Position numbers and translations under genes: made by a program
Part shown: positions 6,758 through 62,487 of the stretch, one piece after another
Layout of the letters: every line of letters starts with the position of its first letter
Position numbering within the stretch: position 1 is the stretch's first letter
The notes under the pieces: generated by a model
Databases searched by the model: none
What the model was told of the DNA's origin: nothing
The model's input: only the letters and a program-made list of their open reading frames with translations
Source of the DNA: an uncultured Gammaproteobacteria bacterium
GTDB taxonomy: Bacteria > Patescibacteriota > Patescibacteriia > Magasanikbacterales > GCA-002688135
Assembly (NCBI GenBank): GCA_964622665.1
Contig: CAZUUO010000001.1
Coordinates: forward strand, 6,666 to 70,665
Direction of reading: 5' to 3'
Length of the DNA: 64,000 bases

Positions 6758-6801
6758 AGGAGCTGTATCGTATCACATTTCGTGATTTTGCCTAGTCCTT
6801 C

Positions 6802-7374
6802 CTAATTAAATATAATTTCGTGACCAAATTCTGCCACGCCAATATTCTTAATAATCGCGCAGGGAAATACCGGTGTTCCAGAGAATGTTTTTCGAATTGC
6901 GGCAATTTTTGCTTCCAATTCTGATTTTTTTATTTTATCAATTTTATTTGCCACAACGACAATATTTTTCTGGTTGTCTTGTAGAGCGGTAAACATTTCC
7001 ATGTCATCTTTAGTTGGGCCAACATTTGCATCAATAATCATGACCACTCGTTTAATCGCGCATTCACTTTCAAATAAATACCAATCAATTAACTCTTGAA
7101 TTTCTTCCTTACGATCTTTACCCACCCGCGCAAATCCATAGCCAGGAATATCCATGAGATACCAAGAATTATTAATCAAAAACATGTTTATCTGTTGGGT
7201 ACGACCCGGTGTATTACTGACGCGAGCCAAAGCCCCGTTTTTCGTAAACGCGTTTACCAAGCTTGATTTCCCCACATTTGAACGCCCAATAAAGACAACT
7301 TGTGGTTTGCCGTCATACAATATAGGGTCATCCCCTACAATTCCTTTGATAAATGTTGCCGTCGTAATTTTCAT
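6802..7374 (-). CDS. engB: ribosome biogenesis GTP-binding protein EngB/YsxC
   Basis: G1 motif 'GRSNVGKSS', the 'DIPGYGFA' motif and the 'NKID' G4 motif, at the typical ~190 aa length. Confidence 0.8.
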   Translation of the reverse strand: MKITTATFIKGIVGDDPILYDGKPQVVFIGRSNVGKSSLVNAFTKNGALARVSNTPGRTQQINMFLINNSWYLMDIPGYGFARVGKDRKEEIQELIDWYLFESECAIKRVVMIIDANVGPTKDDMEMFTALQDNQKNIVVVANKIDKIKKSELEAKIAAIRKTFSGTPVFPCAIIKNIGVAEFGHEIIFN

Positions 7375-15346: not shown

Positions 15347-15476
15347 GCAAGTTCATAAAAAATTCAATAAAATATTGACAAAATCGCTTTTTTCTGATAT
15401 GCTTTCCCCACTTCGTATCTGCGCCATGGTGGCGTTTATCGCGAAGTAAGACTTTCACAAACTCAGAGGAGTTAGC

Positions 15477-16343: not shown

Positions 16344-16404
16344 CCGATAAACGACCCACGATGGGCCGTTTTTTTATTATTTAATTACAGTATCATTATG
16401 CAAC

Positions 16405-16460
16405 AAAAAACCGCCACACGCGTGACGGTTTTTCATTATGTTGCATTTTCTATTTACGAA
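16405..16460. repeat. about 55-nt repeated intergenic element, copy A (A-run, CGCCAC-N4-GTGACG hairpin, T-run, then TTATGYTGCATTTTCTATTT)
   Basis: Near-identical copies lie at 17195-17250 and, hairpin half only, at 18172-18209. All are immediately 3' of minus-strand transcription units (glsB-like, PPase, tRNA-Asn). Confidence 0.45.
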
Positions 16461-17058: not shown

Positions 17059-17194
17059 AGTGGTGCAGGGTTGAGAGACGCACAAAAGTATGTCTTACAC
17101 TATCAATGGTAGTCCTTACTGAGCATTTGTCAAAGATTCTGACGCGTATTTTTTTACTAGTTCCCGTAATGTTTGTATTTGCTGGGTATAAACA

Positions 17195-17250
17195 AAAAAT
17201 CGCCACTTTCGTGACGAGTTTTTATTATGCTGCATTTTCTATTTGCCAGT
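17195..17250. repeat. repeated intergenic element, copy B
   Basis: aacaaaaaatcgccactttcgtgacgagtttttattatgctgcattttctatttgcc matches copy A at more than 85% identity. Confidence 0.45.
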
Positions 17251-18171: not shown

Positions 18172-18209
18172 GACAAAAACAAAAAATCGCCACTTTCGTG
18201 ACGACTTTT
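18172..18209. repeat. repeated intergenic element, copy C (hairpin/terminator half only), abutting the 3' end of tRNA-Asn
   Basis: aaaaaatcgccactttcgtgacgacttttt is identical to the copy B hairpin. The tRNA follows directly. Confidence 0.4.
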
Positions 18210-18284
18210 TGGCTCTGAGGGTGGGGATCGAACCCACGACCAATACGTTAACAGCGTACTGCTCTGCCGCTGAGCTACCTCAGA
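18210..18284 (-). tRNA. tRNA-Asn (anticodon GUU)
   Basis: The reverse complement folds as a 75-nt cloverleaf: acceptor TCTGAGG/CCTCAGA, D-arm GCTC-AGCGGCA-GAGC, anticodon stem-loop GTACG-CTGTTAA-CGTAT, T-arm GTGGG-TTCGATC-CCCAC, discriminator G and an encoded CCA. Confidence 0.85.
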
Positions 18285-41433: not shown

Positions 41434-42699
41434 TCAACCACCCAATAAACTTTTTCGATGTTTTTGTTGATAAAAACTTTTGGCAAATCTATGTGATTCA
41501 TCGCGCACTGCTACAAGAATATGTTCATGCAATCGTGCTAATTGTATGAGTTGTTGTCGTTCACTCACTTTTTTTGTCGCAACCACAAACTCAATTTTTT
41601 TTCGCGTTGGTCCTTTTGCAAGACCAATAATTGGGACATCAATTCCCATTCGCTCCAATACACTTTGTGCACGATTCACTTGTGGTAATCCGCCATCCAT
41701 GAGTAACAACGTCGGCATACCCCAATCAAGATGCGTAAATCGACGACTGAGTACCTCATCCATCATCGCCACATCGTTAGCGCCTTCCACGGTTTTAATT
41801 GAAAATTTTCGGTAATGCGAGGATGCTTTTTCACCATCAATAAACACCACCATGCTTCCCACCGCATGGACGCCGCTAATATTTGAAATGTCATATCCTT
41901 CCACCCGCGCAAACAATGGATGATTTACCGTTTCATCATGATCTTGTGTAATGACTGATACATCTTGAATGTGTTCCAAGTGTTCAATTTTATTGCGCAC
42001 CTGTGCCGCCTCTTCAAAATTTTCATTTTTTGCGGCAAACGCCATTTCTTTTTTCAACTCTTTCAAAATATCAACTCGTTTTCCTTCAAAAAATTGCACA
42101 AGATGACGAATGTTCTTTTTGTATGCGGTTGGCGTGATACTGCCATCACACACTCCTGGGCACAAACCGATATGTTTATTAAAACACGCTTTCCCCACCT
42201 TTCCTTCAGCGGGTGGATTACAACTTGAGTATGGAAATAATCGTCGCATGATACGCAACGCTTCACGAATTGCCCGCGCACTCACAAACGGTCCGTACAC
42301 GCGTGCAAAACTTTTTTCTCCCACATGTTCCAATTCATTTCCTCGAACAAGCTCAATTTTGGGATATTCATCTTTGGTAATTGCCACATACAAAAATGTT
42401 TTGTTGTCTTTACCGAGCACGTTAAAATGAGGCCAATACTCTTTTATCAATTGTGCTTCAAGAATGAGTGCTTCAATGACGGTTCCCGTTTTAACGGTTT
42501 CAATATCTGTCACTACCGCAATTGCTTCTTCGATGGGACGCTTCACTTCGTTCGTATTTTTTTTAAAGTATGACGACACTCGATTTTTTAAATTCGTCGC
42601 CTTCCCCACGTACACCACGGTGTTGCGTGCATCTTTAAACAAGTACACCCCTGGTGACTGTGGCAATAATCGCAGTTGTGACTTGATATCGAGTTTCAT
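41434..42699 (-). CDS. uvrC: short UvrC homolog (GIY-YIG + Cys-rich + UVR + RNase H-like endonuclease domains; C-terminal HhH region apparently absent)
   Basis: GIY-YIG motif 'GVYLFKDARNTVVYVGKATNLKNRVSSYF', a Cys cluster ('CNPP...CFNKHIGLCPGVC'), a UVR helix pair and an endonuclease domain 'EGYDISNISG...GLAK'. At 421 aa it is about 190 aa shorter than canonical UvrC. Confidence 0.7.
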   Translation of the reverse strand: MKLDIKSQLRLLPQSPGVYLFKDARNTVVYVGKATNLKNRVSSYFKKNTNEVKRPIEEAIAVVTDIETVKTGTVIEALILEAQLIKEYWPHFNVLGKDNKTFLYVAITKDEYPKIELVRGNELEHVGEKSFARVYGPFVSARAIREALRIMRRLFPYSSCNPPAEGKVGKACFNKHIGLCPGVCDGSITPTAYKKNIRHLVQFFEGKRVDILKELKKEMAFAAKNENFEEAAQVRNKIEHLEHIQDVSVITQDHDETVNHPLFARVEGYDISNISGVHAVGSMVVFIDGEKASSHYRKFSIKTVEGANDVAMMDEVLSRRFTHLDWGMPTLLLMDGGLPQVNRAQSVLERMGIDVPIIGLAKGPTRKKIEFVVATKKVSERQQLIQLARLHEHILVAVRDESHRFAKSFYQQKHRKSLLGG

Positions 42700-42704
42700 A
42701 ATTA

Positions 42705-44000
42705 CTATTTCAATTGCATGGTGAGTACGAGTTCTACGTGAGGCGTATGTGGGAACATATCAAATGCCCGCACGTTTTTTATTGCAAATACTTCTAAAAA
42801 TTTTGGTAACTCTTCCACAAGTTTGCTCGGATTACATGATACGTACACTAATGTTTTAGGTTGTACCTCACATAACTTCTCAATTACTTTGGGGTGAAGA
42901 CCAGCACGTGGTGGATCAATAATGATAATATCATGTTCATCTTTTTTCATCGACTTGATATGATCTTCGGCTTTGAGTGCAATAAACTCTGCGTGCACGT
43001 TATTTGCAATCGCATTTTCTTTTGCTTTGACAATCGCTGCCTCTACCAACTCAACACCTTTCACTTTCACGTTCTTTTGTGCGAGCGGTAATGTTAAAAA
43101 TCCGGTGCCACAATACATATCGAGTACGTATGAATCACTACTCGTTGCTTGCATTACTTCATCAACGACATATGCCTGTAGTTTTTCTGCCGCTTTCGTG
43201 TTGGTTTGAAAAAATGAGAAGGGAGAAATAGCAAATGTAATGCCGCCCGCGATTTCATGCAATTCTTCTTTTCCGTACAACAATTCTACATCGTTTGTTT
43301 CTGAAATATCAGTGATACTTGTTTGCATGCCACGATACAGTGTTGTAACGAATGGTTGCAGACGAGTAACAAGATCATCCCACACTTTTTGTACGTCGAT
43401 ATTTTCAGGATGACTGTTGCAAATTATGGTGATCATCCGTTCGTTGGTTCGTTTTCCTTCACGAATTACCACATAGCGAATGTATCCCGTATGTTTCACG
43501 GCGTCCCAACCAGTTAGTGTATGAGCACTCATCCAATCGCGCACTGTTTGTAAAATTGTTGGCGTTTCTTCTGATAACAAAAAGCACTCCGTGAGATTCA
43601 ATACCGATTTCCACATCCCTGCTGGTTTCAACCCAATTTCTCCATTTCGCCCAACCGGATAATCCATGCGGTTGCGGTAATAAAAGGTGTCGGGGCTATG
43701 CACTACCTCGCCAATTTCTAAGGGAATGTTATTTTTTTCAAATAAACTCGTGAGAAATTTTTGTTTGGCTTGTACCTGATCTTCATAGGCAACATGCTGC
43801 ATGAAACAACCCCCACAACTTCCCGCGAAGGAACATTTGGGTGGTACTTTGGGGATATTCTCAATAATGCCACGGAGTATGTCTTTCTTTTCTCGTTTTT
43901 TCATATTACCCATTATTTTATAGTGTTTTTGATGATTTGGCAATAATAATGTCCAGTGGCGTATTGACAAAACACTGTTTTTATGATAGTATTTCTCCAT
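42705..44000 (-). CDS. 23S rRNA (uracil-C5)-methyltransferase, RlmD/RumA family
   Basis: N-terminal Fe-S/TRAM region ('CSFAGSCGGC'), class-I MTase motifs ('LDMYCGTGF', 'IIIDPPRAG') and a catalytic Cys near the C-terminus ('YVSCNP'). The true start is probably internal (MGNMKK... or later). Confidence 0.75.
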   Translation of the reverse strand: MEKYYHKNSVLSIRHWTLLLPNHQKHYKIMGNMKKREKKDILRGIIENIPKVPPKCSFAGSCGGCFMQHVAYEDQVQAKQKFLTSLFEKNNIPLEIGEVVHSPDTFYYRNRMDYPVGRNGEIGLKPAGMWKSVLNLTECFLLSEETPTILQTVRDWMSAHTLTGWDAVKHTGYIRYVVIREGKRTNERMITIICNSHPENIDVQKVWDDLVTRLQPFVTTLYRGMQTSITDISETNDVELLYGKEELHEIAGGITFAISPFSFFQTNTKAAEKLQAYVVDEVMQATSSDSYVLDMYCGTGFLTLPLAQKNVKVKGVELVEAAIVKAKENAIANNVHAEFIALKAEDHIKSMKKDEHDIIIIDPPRAGLHPKVIEKLCEVQPKTLVYVSCNPSKLVEELPKFLEVFAIKNVRAFDMFPHTPHVELVLTMQLK

Positions 44001-44034
44001 CGTTTCTCGGCGGTTTACCGCTAAAGGAGGGATC

Positions 44035-44184
44035 CATGTCGACCGACTTCAAGAAGGATGCCAACTGCCCACACTGTCTGGGACGCACATCGCACGCACT
44101 GAGTGGTCGCCCACGCTGCCGCAAGCGGATGGCGAAGGGCGGCAAGCAGAAGAACAAGGAGGTGAAGAAGCAGAAGAAGTAATC
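44035..44184 (+). CDS. GC-rich 49-aa highly basic Cys/His-containing small protein (MSTDFKKDANCPHCLGRTSHALSGRPRCRKRMAKGGKQKNKEVKKQKK)
   Basis: Strong Shine-Dalgarno AAAGGAGGG 5 nt upstream of the ATG and an intrinsic terminator immediately downstream. It sits antisense between two minus-strand genes, and all lysines use AAG. Confidence 0.45.
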
Positions 44185-44198
44185 GTCGGTGTCACAAC

Positions 44199-44227
44199 TC
44201 CGACAGCAAGGACCGCCCACGGGTGGT
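44199..44227 (+). terminator. intrinsic terminator (GGACCGCCC-ACG-GGTGGTCC followed by TTTTT)
   Basis: A 9-bp GC-rich stem with a T-run on the plus strand. It is oriented to terminate the small plus-strand gene. Confidence 0.55.
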
Positions 44228-44232
44228 CCTTT

Positions 44233-46836
44233 TTAATTTCCTAAAACTTTTTTCAAGTATAGTCCGGTATACGATCCTTTTTTCTTGGAAACTTGTAGCG
44301 GTGTTCCAGTTGCAATAATTTCACCGCCATTGTCTCCCCCTTCCGGACCCAAATCAATAACGTAATCTGCACATTTGATGACATCGAGATTATGTTCAAT
44401 CATCAACACTGAATTTCCACGATCTACCAATCGTTGTACGACATGTAATAATTTGCGTACATCCTCATAGTGTAATCCAACCGTTGGTTCATCCAACACG
44501 TACAATGTTTTACCGGTTTGTCGTTTGGATAATTCAAACGCGAGTTTAATACGTTGTGCTTCACCACCTGATAACGTCGTCGCGCTTTGTCCCAACTCTA
44601 AATATCCGAGTCCCACCTCGTTTAAAATATTCATGACGTCGGCGATCACCGGAATATCTTTAAAAAATATTCCCGCCTCTTCAATCGTCATTTTCAACAC
44701 TTCGTAAATTGATTTTCCATTAAAGTGAACAGCGAGTGTTTCGGTATCAAATCGTTTCCCATGACACACATCACATTGCACAAACACGGTCGGCAAAAAA
44801 TGCATTTCAATAGCGAGTTGTCCATTTCCTTCACAGTGATCACATCGTCCTCCACCTCGTTGTCGGGGAACGTTAAATGAAAATCTTCCTGCCTTATATC
44901 CTTTCACCCGCGCGTCAGCAGTTAATGCAAACAAATCGCGAATATGTGAAAACACGCCCGTGTAGGTTGCGGGATTTGAACGGGGTGTACGACCAATAGA
45001 TCCTTGATCCATCAAAATAATTTTATCGAGATATTCAGTTCCCAATACTTCTTCAACACCTTCAACTTTTGCGCGCGTTCGTTGGAGCTTTGCATTCACC
45101 GATGCAAAAATAATGTCATGCACGAGCGTTGACTTCCCACTTCCTGACACTCCCGTCACGCACACAAATCGTTTCAATGGCACTTCAACGGTGATATTTT
45201 TTAAATTATTTGCCCGCGCATTTTTTACTTTTAAGCGTGGCACATTTTCCACCGAACGATACGTTGGAATCTCAATTACTTTTTTCTTTTGCAAGTAATC
45301 AATGGTCAATGATTGTTCTTTATTTTTTCCTGCTAGTAATTTCTTTGTTTCCCCTGATGCAACAACATTTCCTCCATGAATTCCCGCTCCCGGCCCAATA
45401 TCAAGTAAAAAGTCGGACGCCAAAATTGTGTCTTCATCATGTTCCACCACGATAATAGAATTTCCTAAATCACGAAGTTCGAGTAATGTTTTAATTAATT
45501 TTTCGTTATCTCGTTGGTGTAATCCAATCGTTGGTTCATCCAGTACATACAGCGTACCTGTTAGTTTAGAACCAATTTGTGATGCAAGACGAATACGTTG
45601 TGCTTCTCCTCCCGACAATGTTCCTGCGGTACGTGACAATGTCACATAATGCAACCCCACATCCATCATGAACGTTAATCGATCAATAATTTCACGTAAC
45701 ACGGTTGCCGCGATCGTATACTGCGTTTCATTTAATACACCCGTTCCTTTCCCAGGAATTAAATCCATGAAAAATTGTAACGCTTGTGTGATTGATAAAC
45801 TTGTCACTCCCACAATATTTTTCTTCCCGATTGTCACTTCCAAACTTTCTTTACGCAACCGTGCCCCATGACATTCACCACATAACTCATCTGAAAATAG
45901 TTCGGCTGTTCCCAAACCCATACATGCAGCACATTGTCCGTAGGGTGAATTAAAACTAAACAAGCGCGGTTCAATTTCAGGAAACGCAAAATCATGTTCA
46001 GCACATGAAAATTTGGTTGAGTAGGTGATTTCTTTTCCATCAGGAAAAAGTATTGTTACTGTTCCCTGACTTTTACTGATCGCCATTTCAATTGCTTCCA
46101 ATAACCGAGAAGTGTCTGCTTGGCGCGCCAACAAAATTGCAGACAATTCATCAACAATTAAATCGATATTGTGTTGTGTATTACGTTCTAACACTAAACG
46201 GTTTTTAAGGGTGCGGACTTTACCATCAACACGCACCTTCATGAATCCGGCATTATATAAATCGTACAACATTTGGTGGTACTCGCCTTTACGACCCCGC
46301 ACCACACTCGCCATAATCGTCACTACTTTTCCATTTTCTGTTTCATCTTTTACATGAGATAAAATTTGGGTTGCAATTTCGTCAGGTGTCATCTTGGTGA
46401 TTTCTTTGTGACAGACAATACAATGTGGCGTTCCCACACGTGCAAACAACACCCGCAAATAATCATAAATTTCGGTAATAGTGGCAACCGTTGAACGAGG
46501 ATTACTCGAATGTGCCTTTTGGTCGATGGAAATTGCTGGTGACAATCCTGAAATTTCATCAACGTCTGGTTTGGGCATTTGACCCAAAAATTGGCGTGCA
46601 TATGCCGACAAACTTTCCACATAGCGTCTTTGACCTTCTGCAAAAATGGTATCAAACGCCAAAGATGACTTCCCACTTCCTGAAAGTCCCGTAAACACGA
46701 CTAATTTGTGACGCGGCAAGGTCACGGAGATATTTTTGAGGTTGTGCTCGCGCGCACCTTTAATAATGATAGAGTTTTCCATAGGTGTATCCAGTATACA
46801 AGTCTGTTGCCTGATTTGACAAACAACGCTACTCAC
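44233..46836 (-). CDS. uvrA: excinuclease ABC subunit A
   Basis: 867 aa with two ABC ATPase modules (Walker A 'GLSGSGKSS' and 'GVSGSGKST'), zinc-finger Cys clusters ('CIVCHKE', 'CDHCEGNG', 'CDVCHGKRF') and signature motifs 'LSGGEAQRI'. Confidence 0.95.
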   Translation of the reverse strand: MSSVVCQIRQQTCILDTPMENSIIIKGAREHNLKNISVTLPRHKLVVFTGLSGSGKSSLAFDTIFAEGQRRYVESLSAYARQFLGQMPKPDVDEISGLSPAISIDQKAHSSNPRSTVATITEIYDYLRVLFARVGTPHCIVCHKEITKMTPDEIATQILSHVKDETENGKVVTIMASVVRGRKGEYHQMLYDLYNAGFMKVRVDGKVRTLKNRLVLERNTQHNIDLIVDELSAILLARQADTSRLLEAIEMAISKSQGTVTILFPDGKEITYSTKFSCAEHDFAFPEIEPRLFSFNSPYGQCAACMGLGTAELFSDELCGECHGARLRKESLEVTIGKKNIVGVTSLSITQALQFFMDLIPGKGTGVLNETQYTIAATVLREIIDRLTFMMDVGLHYVTLSRTAGTLSGGEAQRIRLASQIGSKLTGTLYVLDEPTIGLHQRDNEKLIKTLLELRDLGNSIIVVEHDEDTILASDFLLDIGPGAGIHGGNVVASGETKKLLAGKNKEQSLTIDYLQKKKVIEIPTYRSVENVPRLKVKNARANNLKNITVEVPLKRFVCVTGVSGSGKSTLVHDIIFASVNAKLQRTRAKVEGVEEVLGTEYLDKIILMDQGSIGRTPRSNPATYTGVFSHIRDLFALTADARVKGYKAGRFSFNVPRQRGGGRCDHCEGNGQLAIEMHFLPTVFVQCDVCHGKRFDTETLAVHFNGKSIYEVLKMTIEEAGIFFKDIPVIADVMNILNEVGLGYLELGQSATTLSGGEAQRIKLAFELSKRQTGKTLYVLDEPTVGLHYEDVRKLLHVVQRLVDRGNSVLMIEHNLDVIKCADYVIDLGPEGGDNGGEIIATGTPLQVSKKKGSYTGLYLKKVLGN

Positions 46837-46875: not shown

Positions 46876-47313
46876 ATGAATCCTGACATTGGACAAATAC
46901 TTGCAGCGGCTAGTGATGCACTACGTTCACAATTCAAACCTGAATTTATTGCGCGTGTTGATATTATCCTTCACAATCAACGTCTTGCTGAAGTCAATAA
47001 AGCCGTTGCTGATTTCTTTATAGCTAATCTGGCGGATACTCATCACACACTCATTACTGAATTTCGTCGTTGGGTGAACCACACTATGCGGTTGGTGTAT
47101 CGTAGCCATCTCAAGAGTAGCATCCCTACGGTTCAATTATTTCGTAAAAACTACTTGGGTAGTGCTCTGGGTGATGTGTTTCTATGCTGTGCTGAAGTGG
47201 CGCGTGTCGTGTTTTATGCCTACAACATCGAGGTTGAAAAAATCGATCAACAGGGATTTGTTGAAGTAACGATCAACAAAGAACTTGGCAACACTATTTT
47301 CTTGTTTGCCTAA
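46876..47313 (+). CDS. hypothetical 145-aa protein (tandem paralog A; possibly an all-alpha MazG-like NTP-pyrophosphatase fold)
   Basis: Divergently transcribed from uvrA. The C-terminal segment 'ALGDVFLCCAEVARVV' loosely resembles the MazG 'EIGDVLFxLVxLA' helix. The domain call is weak. Confidence 0.35.
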   Translation: MNPDIGQILAAASDALRSQFKPEFIARVDIILHNQRLAEVNKAVADFFIANLADTHHTLITEFRRWVNHTMRLVYRSHLKSSIPTVQLFRKNYLGSALGDVFLCCAEVARVVFYAYNIEVEKIDQQGFVEVTINKELGNTIFLFA

Positions 47314-47406: not shown

Positions 47407-47844
47407 ATGTTGACAATTTTGCACTCTGTCTCGGAATTAATTGAATCTTATCTGCGTCATTTGCAGCAACTTTTTTTTCAAAATAAAAATGTTGATTTTT
47501 CAAATGAACACTGCAGCAAAATTGCCGCAGAATATACTCCCCACTTTGAAGGAATAAGTGCGGCTGAATTAGCACGTATCGGGAGAGAACACTGTAGTTT
47601 TGTTACCAAAAAACTGCGCGAGGTTCTTGAGAATCGTCACCTTATGAATCGTAGTACTGCTATGGTTCAACTCTATTCACGGACCGATCCTCCAGAAACA
47701 ATGCAAGAAGTATTTGCAAACCTTTTTGCTGACATTGTGATCTTGCTAGGAAGTATCAATCATTGTGTTGTGGTAAAGAAAAAAGAGCGCACTGAACTTA
47801 CCGTCACGGCAAGCAGAGAATTTGTAAACGCGCTGCATTTGTAA
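47407..47844 (+). CDS. hypothetical 145-aa protein (tandem paralog B of the preceding gene)
   Basis: Same length as paralog A with alignable blocks ('TVQLF' vs 'MVQLY', 'DVFLCCAEVARVVF' vs 'EVFANLFADIVILL'). Strong Shine-Dalgarno AAGGAGGG precedes it. Confidence 0.35.
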   Translation: MLTILHSVSELIESYLRHLQQLFFQNKNVDFSNEHCSKIAAEYTPHFEGISAAELARIGREHCSFVTKKLREVLENRHLMNRSTAMVQLYSRTDPPETMQEVFANLFADIVILLGSINHCVVVKKKERTELTVTASREFVNALHL

Positions 47845-53949: not shown

Positions 53950-54402
53950 ATGGTAACCATTATCGCCAGCAATAAACAAGCGATGTTTGATTACACCCTT
54001 CTCAAACGTTTTGAGGCAGGGATTGTTTTACATGGTCATGAAGTGAAATCAGTAAAAACGGGGCACGCCCAACTGAAAGGCGCATATGTCACTATTATGC
54101 ACGGTGAAGTGTTTCTGTTTAATGGTCACATTCCTGCGTATGCCCGTTCACGAGTGAGTGCAACGTATGACCCATACCGTAGCCGCAAGTTACTGCTTAA
54201 CAAAAAAGAAGTAATGGAACTTATTGGCAACAAAGCTATGCAAGGTATGTCAGTTGTTCCCCTCTCCATTTATCTGTCACACAATAAAATAAAAGTGGAA
54301 ATTGCACTGGCTCGCGGTAAAAAACAATTTGAAAAACGTGACTCCATTAAAAAACGAGAAACAGATCGAGAGATACGACGTGCGCTCAAAACATCGTTCT
54401 AA
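53950..54402 (+). CDS. smpB: SsrA-binding protein SmpB
   Basis: 'IASNKQAMFDYTLLKRFEAGIVLHGHEVKS' and 'NGHIPAY...KLLLNKKE' signatures with a basic C-terminal tail. Confidence 0.9.
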   Translation: MVTIIASNKQAMFDYTLLKRFEAGIVLHGHEVKSVKTGHAQLKGAYVTIMHGEVFLFNGHIPAYARSRVSATYDPYRSRKLLLNKKEVMELIGNKAMQGMSVVPLSIYLSHNKIKVEIALARGKKQFEKRDSIKKRETDREIRRALKTSF

Positions 54403-54442: not shown

Positions 54443-54839
54443 AAACCGTTGTGGGGATGAAGGGAATCGATTGGGTCGAATTCGTGCCATGCATGTCGCA
54501 GGTGCTCATACTTGCGTTATCACTATGAGCAAAAACAAATGTCAACGTTTCAAACGTACGCGCAGCACTTGCAAAAGTGTTCGCTATGACACCTGTAGCA
54601 GCTTAATTGCAGCTACCATCGTCTCTTTCTCGCCAAGGAGCAAGAGTAACGGTGTAATACAATCTTGGATTCTTACAAAGAACTCACGACACTTTGTAAT
54701 GAATACATGCGTCGTGTAGAATGTTTCGTATTTCGTAACTTGTTTTAAGCGAAACATCGACAACCTACAAGTTACTACACACGTAGAGTGGTAACGACAC
54801 TACGTCTCAAGACGCGGGTTCAACTCCCGCCATCTCCAA
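54443..54839 (+). ncRNA. ssrA: tmRNA (ssrA); predicted tag reading frame ...AAL AKV FAM TPV AA* ending at TAA about 54625-54627
   Basis: It lies immediately downstream of smpB. The 5' GGGGATG pairs with the 3' CATCTCC, including a G3:U70 Ala-identity pair. A tRNA-like T-arm 'GCGGGTTCAACTCCCGC' is present. The internal ORF ends in 'PVAA' then TAA. CCA is not encoded. Confidence 0.75.
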
Positions 54840-55103
54840 CAAAAAAAGTTTGCGCATTTGTGCAAGCTTTTTTTGTTTATGGGAGTTGAACAAGGAAGGC
54901 ACAGGAAACCTTGGTTTCTTGTCTGCAGAAGTATTGAAACCGATGGTTTCAAAGCACAGCGCGAAGCTGCGAGCAGTAAAACTCCGCCATCTCCAATAAA
55001 AAATCCTACTTTATCGGTAGTATTTTTTATTTTACATTGACAAAATCAACTTTTTTTCCTATTATGAAGTGTCATTGGACCCCAAACCCCAAACCAAAAG
55101 GAG

Positions 55104-62290: not shown

Positions 62291-62487
62291 ACGTATATCT
62301 TCCTATACCATACACCCTTACGCAAGGTGAGAGTCAATACACCATTTTATTGCTATTTCAATAATCTATTTTAATTTAAATTCATTGACATGATAACGTT
62401 TTTTTGTTATTATTTTTAGTCATGTTTGGGGAATAAAGACACTCAGTCATTTCCCAACAAGACAATCCCTCAAAAGGAGATCGATCC

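Follow-up and report, generated by a model that had tools for sequence, protein, structure and literature searches.

A probable zinc-knuckle micro-protein gene with maintained GC-rich codon bias between uvrA and rlmD in Patescibacteria

Results

The window, the 64-kb stretch of DNA analysed here, contains a mini-gene in the spacer between uvrA and rlmD, a DNA-repair gene and an rRNA gene of this Patescibacteria member with its tiny genome. The ORF runs on the plus strand from an ATG at 44036 to a TAA at 44180-44182 (48 codons plus TAA), and its translation is MSTDFKKDANCPHCLGRTSHALSGRPRCRKRMAKGGKQKNKEVKKQKK. A previous sequence-only reading had recognised the GC-rich ORF but had given it 49 residues instead of 48, and had correctly placed it antisense to both flanking genes. 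Upstream lies the minus-strand gene for an RlmD/RumA-type methyltransferase (rlmD, 42705-43913) and downstream, also on the minus strand, uvrA (44233-46782, or to 46836 from an upstream GTG). The order uvrA-[mini-gene]-rlmD-uvrC is the same in nine other metagenome contigs. The mini-gene appears to be a head-on insertion between the first two genes of a uvrA-rlmD-uvrC string, because in L084, a 65%-identical relative, the uvrA stop codon overlaps the rlmD start and no gene lies between. In L001 and L061, unrelated ORFs occupy the uvrA-rlmD gap. None of 80 GTDB Patescibacteria/archaeal rlmD loci contained the DNA element, the peptide, or a small ORF with a CCHC unit and a K-rich segment, and the region is neither duplicated nor repeated within the window. 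A protein search for close relatives with the UvrA C-terminus returned the same strain only, UvrA being too conserved for this purpose. All members of the mini-gene family seen so far belong to one narrow clade of Uhrbacteria-like Patescibacteria.

The mini-gene has its own transcription signals. A sigma-70-type promoter at 43964..43992 on the plus strand consists of TTGACA at 43964, a 17-nt spacer and an extended -10 element, TG-a-TAGTAT (10 of 12 matches, TG present), with an inferred transcription start near 43999. This canonical promoter is absent from the sequence-only reading. The -35 and -10 elements are conserved in L081, L104, L103 and L098, and the same architecture occurs at three other promoters of the window (families D2 and D14). 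The promoter spacer was considered as the site of an operator or LexA box, and this was rejected; the A4-N-T4 palindrome found there differs between alleles and is general in promoters of this organism. The 5' UTR (43999..44035, plus strand) comprises a hairpin, GGCGG-TTTA-CCGCT, at 44009-44022 and the Shine-Dalgarno sequence AAAGGAGGG at 44023-44031, the GGAGG of which lies 5 nt from the ATG, in agreement with the near-perfect ribosome-binding site and 5-nt spacer described earlier. All alleles keep the hairpin and the Shine-Dalgarno sequence unchanged or almost unchanged; the spacer to the ATG differs among them in sequence, and its length by 1 nt. In three variant folds the GGAG pairs with an upstream CUCC-type run (the pyrimidine run TTTCTC or TTCTCC), and occlusion of the Shine-Dalgarno sequence by this run is predicted.

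Two hairpins follow the stop codon. The first, a stem-loop at 44185..44204 (plus strand), folds in the group of the window, L081 and L104, in L103 and in L098; three unrelated sequences occupy the site, each a hairpin (z -2.8 to -4.7). The second is the GC-stem intrinsic terminator that had been ascribed to the mini-gene (44208..44236, plus strand), with a 10-bp stem at 44208-44231, a CACG loop and a TTTTT run; directly next to it, on the opposite strand, is the stop codon of uvrA. In L098 the stem contains compensatory double changes at two pairs, and a third change is one-sided, from G-U to A-U. Viewed from the minus strand the hairpin lacks a U tract, and it reads from the sequence as unidirectional. 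The strong promoter would give an mRNA of about 235 nt, consisting in order of the 5' stem-loop, the strong Shine-Dalgarno sequence, an ORF of 45-51 codons, the post-stop hairpin and the terminator. This layout suggests a stable, well-translated message.

The product of the window allele is a 5.5-kDa peptide with a pI of 10.6, containing 16 K+R and 3 D+E. It was correctly described before as strongly basic with a Lys-rich tail, and the tail is kept in the other alleles. The peptide is hydrophilic throughout (GRAVY -1.5), which speaks against the suggestion of a small toxin, at least one of the hydrophobic type. A putative zinc knuckle is encoded at 44066..44119 (plus strand) as C11-P-H-C14-L-G-x3-H20-x3-G-R-P-x-C28. 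The knuckle-like Cys/His N-terminus was thus a sound observation, and its C-x2-C-x5-H-x7-C spacing is unchanged across five alleles. Within it C, P, C, G, H, G, R and C are invariant and most of the intervening residues vary, leaving the conserved pattern C-P-x-C-x-G-x3-H-x3-G-R-x2-C followed by the Lys-rich tail. All four candidate Zn ligands (Cys3His) are among the invariant residues, and we infer that the knuckle binds one Zn ion through them. The polybasic tail, residues 29-48 (44120..44179, plus strand), is encoded by a stretch that is 85% purine from 44131 onward. Its length differs among alleles, giving products of 45-51 aa in total; in L103, a CAG to TAG change drops the last three residues. 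A single-sequence AlphaFold (AF2) model of the product had a pLDDT of 56, too low to use.

Comparison of alleles supports translation of the ORF. The nine further contigs at this locus yielded five distinct alleles of one clade, and all five keep the ATG, the Shine-Dalgarno sequence and the reading frame. Samples containing the alleles are SRR12487046, SRR30758783, ERR10034876, ERZ4201065, ERZ3460577 and JGI 3300023179. Indels within the ORF are +3, -3, -3 and +15, all multiples of three, and 1-nt indels occur in the UTRs. Between the window and L098, differences over codons 1-31 fall 4/2/17 by codon position, the best pattern among the six frames, with a pN of 0.10, a pS of 0.70 and a pN/pS of approximately 0.15. 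Other within-type comparisons gave 8/6/22, 6/4/16 and 9/7/21 (P = 6e-4 to 3e-3 for the excess at position 3). Within types, pN/pS was 0.13-0.26 in pairs that span lineages and 0.40 between the close relatives L081 and L104; these statistics draw on five alleles of one clade, with about 30 synonymous sites for each pair. The kept frame, codon-phased substitutions and conserved start signals are those generic to protein-coding sequence, and conservation of the reading frame, by which the sequence-only reading had proposed to judge the ORF, is borne out. Since indels within the ORF are multiples of three only and differences are concentrated at codon position 3, the mini-gene is, on this comparative sequence evidence, a genuine protein-coding gene and not an sRNA. 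L085, from the same strain at 2.3x coverage, has AGG where ATG is expected, and L105, from another sample, has ATG; the AGG was rejected as an argument against coding and judged to be a low-coverage T to G error, like the errors at the end of the L085 contig.

The composition of the mini-gene is opposite to that of its genome. At a scale of 200 nt, GC content across the window is highest at the mini-gene (0.60 versus a mean of 0.40, sd 0.038), and at 150 nt it is the only peak of the window above 4.2 sd. GC3 is 0.81 compared to 0.33 for the genome, and GC1 and GC2 are ordinary. All Lys codons are AAG as reported, although they number 11 and not about 12; AAG accounts for 18% of Lys codons elsewhere, in the 37 long ORFs of the window (P ~8e-9). 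The atypical GC-rich, AAG-only coding is therefore confirmed for the window allele, and across alleles GC3 is 0.80-0.90 and the AAG:AAA ratio 50:1, in loci of 39-42% GC. Three lineages between which rlmD pS is 0.5-0.63 keep this bias, the flanking genes being near synonymous saturation. Because GC3 and AAG are kept despite this divergence of rlmD, the bias is, as judged from the alleles, maintained and not the relic of a recent transfer.

Several explanations of the bias were discarded. High-expression codon preference was dropped in view of bL35, bL20 and smpB of the window, which use mostly AAA for Lys, and regional biased gene conversion in view of the adjoining uvrA and rlmD ends, where GC3 is 0.30-0.44. 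Avoidance of minus-strand intrinsic terminators was also rejected; 284 of 300 recodings sampled from genome codon usage produced none, and none arises when AAG is recoded to AAA. The GC3-rich, AAG-only coding would then be held by a force acting on the mini-gene ORF alone, candidates being selection on the mRNA or DNA of the transcription unit, or a conversion bias restricted to the locus. Of the earlier readings of the codon usage, that of unusual expression constraints remains.

The alleles form two classes that are approximately 47% identical. Both classes are present within one 94%-identical clade, with an rlmD pS of 0.17, and both are present in distant lineages at a pS of about 0.6. Between types, pN is 0.30-0.40 versus 0.013-0.08 for rlmD, and L104 combines parts of three alleles in a mosaic. 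Sequences of the UTRs, the post-stop hairpin and the terminator group by host lineage and not by allele type. The ORF body would thus consist of two old, recombining allele classes within a regulatory scaffold that follows the host lineage. A diversity-generating retroelement target was considered and rejected; the differences lie in contiguous runs with indels that are multiples of three, and the window contains no template repeat.

Database searches did not link the mini-gene to a known family. The peptide has no match in Pfam, NCBIfam, PHROGs, PADLOC or the PDB, and no homologue in a word-indexed set of 5.8 billion proteins. In an exhaustive phmmer search of 1.84 billion proteins the only matches were P0121 and P0122, both of them junk translations of repeats. 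With 0 hits in PADLOC and best PHROG E-values of 0.1-0.17, no known defence or phage family is indicated. A scan of viral contigs with UTR, tail and peptide patterns was empty, and 12 other hits in a motif scan were out-of-frame chance matches. Alleles of types 1a, 1b and 2a (0 of 3) are not present among approximately 15 billion called proteins, and no genes are called in the uvrA-rlmD spacers of the recovered contigs. The mini-gene was most likely missed by gene callers due to a composition opposite to that of the genome.

Discussion

The results are best described by a gene that is transcribed on its own and belongs to a new micro-protein family, encoding an abundant, polybasic nucleic-acid binder with a Zn knuckle, with a codon bias that is maintained and two recombining allele classes. 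We hold this composite reading with somewhat better than even confidence. The product would be a hydrophilic peptide of about 5.5 kDa and pI 10-10.6, composed of a Zn knuckle and a disordered Lys-rich tail. The knuckle may make a small, folded contact, with electrostatic affinity coming from the polybasic tail, in an abundant nucleic-acid-binding or chaperoning micro-protein acting on RNA, the ribosome or the nucleoid. Because the product is strongly basic, the nucleic-acid or ribosome binder proposed in the sequence-only reading is a reasonable suggestion, and the function is probably that of an abundant nucleic-acid binder of this kind. The small proteins of Patescibacteria/CPR are essentially uncharted, and genes such as this one are systematically overlooked by gene finders trained on composition. 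GC islands of AT-rich genomes are not necessarily RNA genes or foreign DNA. A bias held this long (GC3 0.8-0.9, AAG 50:1) in a single 150-nt ORF is also a clean natural test case for causes of codon choice beyond tRNA supply, such as mRNA fate, avoidance of A runs and biased conversion.

The same region might instead specify an RNA. In that reading the transcript is a structured non-coding sRNA, as had been suggested, or acts in cis as an antisense regulator on the uvrA/rlmD transcript, and the ORF is incidental. It is consistent with a separately promoted and terminated GC island in an AT-rich genome, with an ORF uncalled by every gene caller, with the full complementarity, read from the sequence, to any uvrA-to-rlmD read-through RNA, and with an estimated 20% chance of an open frame of 49 codons in 60% GC sequence. 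However, Rfam cmscan of 43000-45200 at E <= 10 gave only chance matches of about 17 bits, and the whole window at gathering score only tRNA and tmRNA. Folding does not exceed that of shuffles (z -0.83 and -1.57), the ORF interior lacks consistent covarying helices, substitutions are codon-phased with indels in multiples of three, and the Shine-Dalgarno sequence and ATG are conserved around a spacer that varies. An RNA gene is therefore highly improbable; an antisense side-effect of the mini-gene mRNA may be compatible with coding, but does not replace it. The minus strand contains a 'shadow' ORF of 79 aa (43981..44220) that shares wobble positions with the mini-gene and was judged not to be a gene. 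Were it real, this 67-79-aa ORF with its hydrophobic stretch YFFCFFTSLFFCLPPFAI would encode a type-I-toxin-like peptide translated after uvrA, with the plus-strand RNA as antitoxin. The window, L081 and L098 all have this frame open; AAGGA lies 6 nt 5' of its GTG start as read from the sequence, and its pN/pS is low as well (0.19), which derives from the shared wobble positions. Opposite any GC3-rich gene, however, the antisense frame is expected to be open. Its start lies inside the terminator stem, its Cys residues are unconserved, amino-acid changes are 6/30 versus 3/31 in the plus frame, and the promoter, Shine-Dalgarno sequence, ATG and U tract all serve the plus strand. In L098, a 1-nt UTR indel puts the start and the C-terminal 15-20 residues in different frames, so that neither end is conserved. 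A type I toxin-antitoxin was ruled out on these unconserved ends and on the conserved Shine-Dalgarno sequence, ATG and constrained ORF of the plus RNA, and a real minus-strand gene has next to no likelihood.

Other alternatives accept the peptide and differ on its history or role. Recent horizontal transfer from a GC-rich donor, with the allele classes as separate imports, would account for a GC3 of 0.81 in a 40% GC genome, for the insertion relative to L084 and for allele types incongruent with the host tree. However, within-type pS (0.51-0.61) is similar to that of rlmD (0.58-0.63), yet GC3 is still 0.8-0.9 and Lys still AAG, where neutral decay would lead to 0.33. The host-lineage signal of the UTRs, post-stop hairpin and terminator indicates exchange among these bacteria at the locus, and protein searches found no homologue from any GC-rich source. 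The recent acquisition suggested by the sequence-only reading is thus very unlikely. A determinant of conflict or specificity (towards phage, host or competing strains) under balanced polymorphism, with a role other than general nucleic-acid binding, would fit two such divergent classes within and across lineages, the mosaic L104 and the high between-type pN. There is, however, no partner gene, secretion signal or defence-system match, selection within types is purifying and not diversifying, and a weakly constrained peptide with two tolerated forms and ordinary recombination could look alike. Dimorphic, mosaic alleles in a conserved scaffold give a hint of a role in specificity or conflict, but this explanation is doubtful. 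A further reading, possible but on balance unlikely, combines a long-lived, trans-lineage polymorphism of two alleles with intragenic recombination inside an invariant scaffold; the GC3/AAG bias would stem from locus-restricted GC-biased conversion, or from escape of the mRNA from a fate specific to A-rich messages (ribosome sliding on A runs, HigB-type cleavage). If true, the mini-gene would be a determinant of specificity or stress in CPR bacteria that every gene caller overlooked.

The favoured micro-protein, a Zn-knuckle nucleic-acid binder, resembles several known systems, although its 2-5-7 ligand spacing fits none of the families tested. Its Cys-Cys-His-Cys unit in a highly basic peptide recalls the retroviral-type CCHC zinc knuckle of nucleocapsid (zf-CCHC; reviewed in PMC6088434), and like that tiny unit with basic flanks it would be expected to bind nucleic acid non-specifically and act as a chaperone. 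However, zf-CCHC has C-x2-C-x4-H-x4-C spacing, unlike the C-x2-C-x5-H-x7-C of the five alleles, and the mini-gene product is bacterial, has a single knuckle and no aromatic residue at the canonical position; no relevant Pfam match was found at E <= 10. The CPxCG-like zinc-finger micro-proteins of haloarchaea, including Brz of Halobacterium (PMC2253796) and others in the Haloferax small proteome (PMC10117724), are likewise stand-alone proteins of <=70 aa with a C-P-x-C knuckle. They frequently escape annotation or are annotated poorly, and there are regulators among them. They contain two C(P)xCG pairs (Cys4), whereas the mini-gene product has one CPxC, a His and a Cys 7 residues apart, and a Lys-rich tail; host phylum and base composition also differ, and the sequences are not similar. 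DUF7559, the best match in Pfam, had an E-value of 0.11 (13 bits versus a cut-off of 27). Com of phage Mu activates translation by binding mRNA through a zinc finger (62 aa; PMC6483171), and the mini-gene product would share with it a very small size, basic charge, zinc binding and RNA binding. Com, however, is encoded by a phage, its finger is of the Cys4 type and its RNA target is defined, and PDB and PHROG searches found no similarity between the two. Ribosomal proteins bL36, bL34, bL32 and bL33 are similar in size and basic charge, with Cys knuckles in some. The product is not a known small ribosomal protein, an identity the sequence-only reading had allowed for; it has no Pfam or NCBIfam match and no similarity to bL34 or bL36 (hhalign probabilities of 0.4% and 0.2%). 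Ribosomal proteins are universal and slow-evolving, whereas the mini-gene is clade-restricted, dimorphic and absent from L084, and the ribosomal protein genes of the window, unlike the mini-gene, use ordinary codons.

The ORF and its locus

The mini-gene occupies 44036 (ATG) to 44182 (TAA) of the plus strand and encodes 48 residues, where the sequence-only reading had counted 49. Its neighbors are the RlmD/RumA-type methyltransferase gene (42705-43913), followed by uvrC (41434-42699), and uvrA, with its start at 46782 (46836 if an upstream GTG is used) and its stop codon at 44233. All three are on the minus strand, and the mini-gene is indeed opposite to both flanking genes, as had been noted. 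Comparison of its codon use with the genome, a check proposed earlier, revealed a GC3 of 0.81 versus 0.33 genome-wide, with ordinary GC1 and GC2. All lysine codons are AAG as described, but there are 11 rather than roughly 12; AAG accounts for 18% of lysine codons in 37 long ORFs of the window (P ~8e-9 for 11/11). The claimed GC richness is evident: window GC is 40.0%, and the highest 200-nt GC of the entire window falls at the mini-gene (0.60 versus a mean of 0.40, sd 0.038), which is also the sole 150-nt GC peak above 4.2 sd. The earlier description was essentially right, with small corrections.

Judged from RlmD, UvrA and UvrC relatives, the host is an Uhrbacteria-like member of the Patescibacteria. 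Many Patescibacteria-like MAG contigs (L001, L002 and others) bear the title 'uncultured Gammaproteobacteria bacterium' (TPA binchicken assemblies); from their gene content and relatives, they look mislabelled. UvrC of the window is only 421 aa, with GIY-YIG, UVR, UvrC_M and RNase H-like domains; a C-terminal helix-hairpin-helix domain is not recorded, and length is equal in all close relatives. Divergent from uvrA, on the plus strand, lie two neighboring ORFs (46876-47313 and 47407-47844), each of 145 aa, that may be paralogues.

Relatives and coding capacity

The peptide had no match in Pfam, NCBIfam, PHROGs, PADLOC or PDB and no homologues among 5.8 billion and 1.84 billion proteins, and Rfam gave no match to the mini-gene region at E of 10 or below (only tRNA and tmRNA in the whole window). 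The decision between RNA and protein therefore had to rest on DNA-level relatives. Contig L081 was reached via RlmD homologues (96-97% and 65% identity) in public assemblies, L099, L100, L103, L104 and L105 via members of the 90% clusters of those homologues, and L085 via a UvrA fragment search. A degenerate Cys/His-motif DNA pattern had 13 matches in JGI metagenomes; one is a true homologue (L098), and the other 12, out of frame and on GC-rich contigs, are chance. All true matches share the gene order uvrA, mini-gene (opposite strand), rlmD, uvrC, and no mini-gene contig has a called gene in the uvrA-rlmD spacer. Five alleles were recovered: 1a (window, L105, L085; MSTDFKKDANCPHCLGRTSHALSGRPRCRKRMAKGGKQKNKEVKKQKK), 1b (L098, L099, L100; MSTDFKKDSLCPYCLGRTSHALSGRPRCRKRTASGSKKNKEAKAKVKNKKK), 2a (L081; MPTLNLGKDLGCPYCHGTNAHGRNGRPNCKAKMSKSSNKSKEVKKSKK), 2b (L104; MPTLNLGKDLGCPYCHGTNAHGRTGRAQCKAKMSKSGNNKNKEVKKQKK) and 2c (L103; MPPQNLGKDPGCPYCGGTNAHGRTGRAQCKAKMSKTGNKNKEVKK). 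Alleles 1a, 1b and 2a, the three looked up, are absent from a 15-billion-protein collection.

The sequence-only reading had allowed that the GC-rich block is a structured sRNA, and had proposed weighing conservation of the frame against that of RNA structure. Besides the empty Rfam search, predicted folding of the plus strand is no stronger than that of dinucleotide-shuffled controls (z -0.83 and -1.57), whereas the frame is kept. Indels inside the ORF are all multiples of three (+3, -3, -3, +15); 1-nt indels occur in the 5' UTR and in the spacer between Shine-Dalgarno (SD) and ATG. Over codons 1-31, the window and L098 differ at codon positions 1, 2 and 3 by 4, 2 and 17 changes (pS 0.70, pN 0.10), one change being a Ser TCG to AGC switch, and the plus frame is the best of six. 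Whole-ORF within-type pairs give 8/6/22, 6/4/16 and 9/7/21 (P = 6e-4 to 3e-3; pN/pS 0.13-0.26). The pattern C-P-x-C-x-G-x3-H-x3-G-R-x2-C is invariant in the five alleles, and most residues between ligands differ between types. The SD and ATG are also invariant, with variation in the five bases separating them. L085, which is the same strain as the window at 2.3x coverage, reads AGG for this ATG (T to G, equivalent to window 44037), resembling low-quality end errors on that contig; L105, from another sample, has ATG. These signatures argue against an sRNA and indicate a genuine micro-protein gene that had escaped annotation and represents a new family.

A 79-aa antisense ORF (43981-44220) also has a low pN/pS (0.19). 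It is open and scores low because its wobble positions are shared with the mini-gene. Its start and C-terminal part are in other frames in L098 and it collects more replacements than the plus frame, so it was treated as a shadow ORF.

Expression signals

A sigma-70-type promoter (43964-43992, plus strand; TTGACA, 17-nt spacer, TG-a-TAGTAT) precedes the gene. The near-perfect SD (AAAGGAGGG, 5 nt ahead of ATG) and the gene's own intrinsic terminator (44208-44236, plus strand) were found as described. Promoter, SD and a 5' hairpin, GGCGG-TTTA-CCGC(C/T), are kept in all lineages, except that in L104 a C to G change in the hairpin stem turns GGCGG into GGGGG. A CUCC-type run upstream is a predicted pairing partner of the SD in every variant. 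The hairpin after the stop codon occurs as three unrelated sequences that all fold (z -2.8 to -4.7), and the terminator stem has compensatory double changes. This layout suggests a stable, well-expressed small mRNA.

The promoter architecture recurs at three further places in the window and is probably the strong-promoter consensus of this organism; the form TATTGACAAAA..TTTTT..TGATA(T/G) is at 15373-15410, 43962-43999 (the mini-gene's), 55036-55062 and 62384-62410. A terminator-like hairpin repeat family (AAACAAAAAATCGCCAC..GTGACGA..TTTT; 16401-16455, 17190-17244, 18177-18210) comes after several small genes beside tRNA-Asn. smpB (53950-54402, plus strand) directly precedes tmRNA (54453-54841, plus strand; 111 bits; tag peptide AKTNVNVSNVRAALAKVFAMTPVAA).

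Allele classes and codon bias

The rlmD gene groups the window, L081 and L104 as one clade (pS ~0.17), with L098 and L103 each at pS of about 0.55-0.63 from it and 0.51 from each other. Type 1 is found in the window and L098 and type 2 in L081, L104 and L103; thus, each type is represented both within the close clade and in a lineage far from it. The types are ~47% identical in amino acids (pN 0.30-0.40), compared to an rlmD pN of only 0.013 within the clade. L104 is mosaic, matching L081 exactly over its 5' third and the window exactly over its tail, with a middle section resembling L103. Promoter, UTR hairpins, SD and terminator track host lineage, not allele type. Across the five alleles available, the pattern points to long-lived polymorphism, exchange by homologous recombination within a conserved scaffold, or both.

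Recent horizontal acquisition had been offered to explain the codon usage. However, GC3 is 0.80-0.90 in all five alleles, which together contain 50 AAG and 1 AAA codons; the loci themselves have 39-42% GC. Within-type synonymous divergence is 0.61 (1a/1b) and 0.51 (2b/2c), as high as the rlmD pS between the same lineages (0.63 and 0.58), so synonymous sites turned over yet stayed G or C. The bias is thus a maintained rather than a recent one, and the suggestion of recent transfer is not supported. It does not extend beyond the ORF: GC3 is 0.30-0.44 in the neighboring 50-codon blocks of uvrA and rlmD, and GC content is 29% in the promoter region. A high-expression preference was rejected because bL35, bL20 and smpB, also in the window, encode lysine mostly with AAA (GC3 0.35-0.37), and recoding simulations gave no support for avoidance of minus-strand intrinsic terminators. 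Candidate causes are a need to avoid A runs, where ribosomes slide (PMC4363877), or to escape HigB-type mRNA cleavage specific to A-rich sequence (PMC4931118). Further candidates are mRNA stability, an antisense stretch rich in pyrimidines and in C over G that would act on the transcript of uvrA (C/G ratio 3.5 opposite the Lys-rich tail), and GC-biased conversion (PMC4450053) limited to the exchanged ORF body.

Product and origin

The allele products have masses of 4.8-5.7 kDa, pI values of 10.0-10.6 and GRAVY scores between about -1.3 and -1.5, and no hydrophobic segment or signal peptide was found in them. The knuckle-like Cys/His N-terminus and Lys-rich tail of the earlier description hold as a conserved Cys3His pattern with a basic tail, which resembles zinc-knuckle nucleic-acid binders in overall plan, but the product does not fit the families tested. 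It differs from retroviral zf-CCHC in spacing and profile, and falls outside the haloarchaeal CPxCG micro-proteins and the zinc or polybasic ribosomal proteins; a known small ribosomal protein, the identity raised earlier as a possible refutation, was not matched. Our tentative best guess is a micro-protein that is abundant, stabilised by Zn and active in nucleic-acid binding or chaperoning. The main alternative is a role in conflict or specificity, which the two allele classes and the mosaic would favor. A small zinc-finger basic protein is a familiar kind of product; what is unusual is the long-maintained, ORF-restricted GC3/AAG bias within AT-rich genomes, together with a conserved expression scaffold that houses dimorphic, mosaic alleles.

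The element is absent from GTDB species representatives found with RlmD (at most 52% identical). In L084, whose RlmD is 65% identical, the stop of uvrA overlaps the start of rlmD, with no mini-gene between them, and L001 and L061 (45-52%) have unrelated ORFs in the gap, indicating that the mini-gene is a clade-specific insertion into a variable uvrA-rlmD spacer. L083 and L102 (~92% nucleotide identity to the window) have a GC-rich palindromic repeat directly upstream of rlmD, within which both contigs end (L083 1-121, L102 1-41). This repeat is REP/MITE-like, of the GTCATCC..GCGAAGGCGGGGATC type, and the type also occurs in frame inside RlmD of L061 (about 6800-6900), giving the peptide VIPAKAGIQ.
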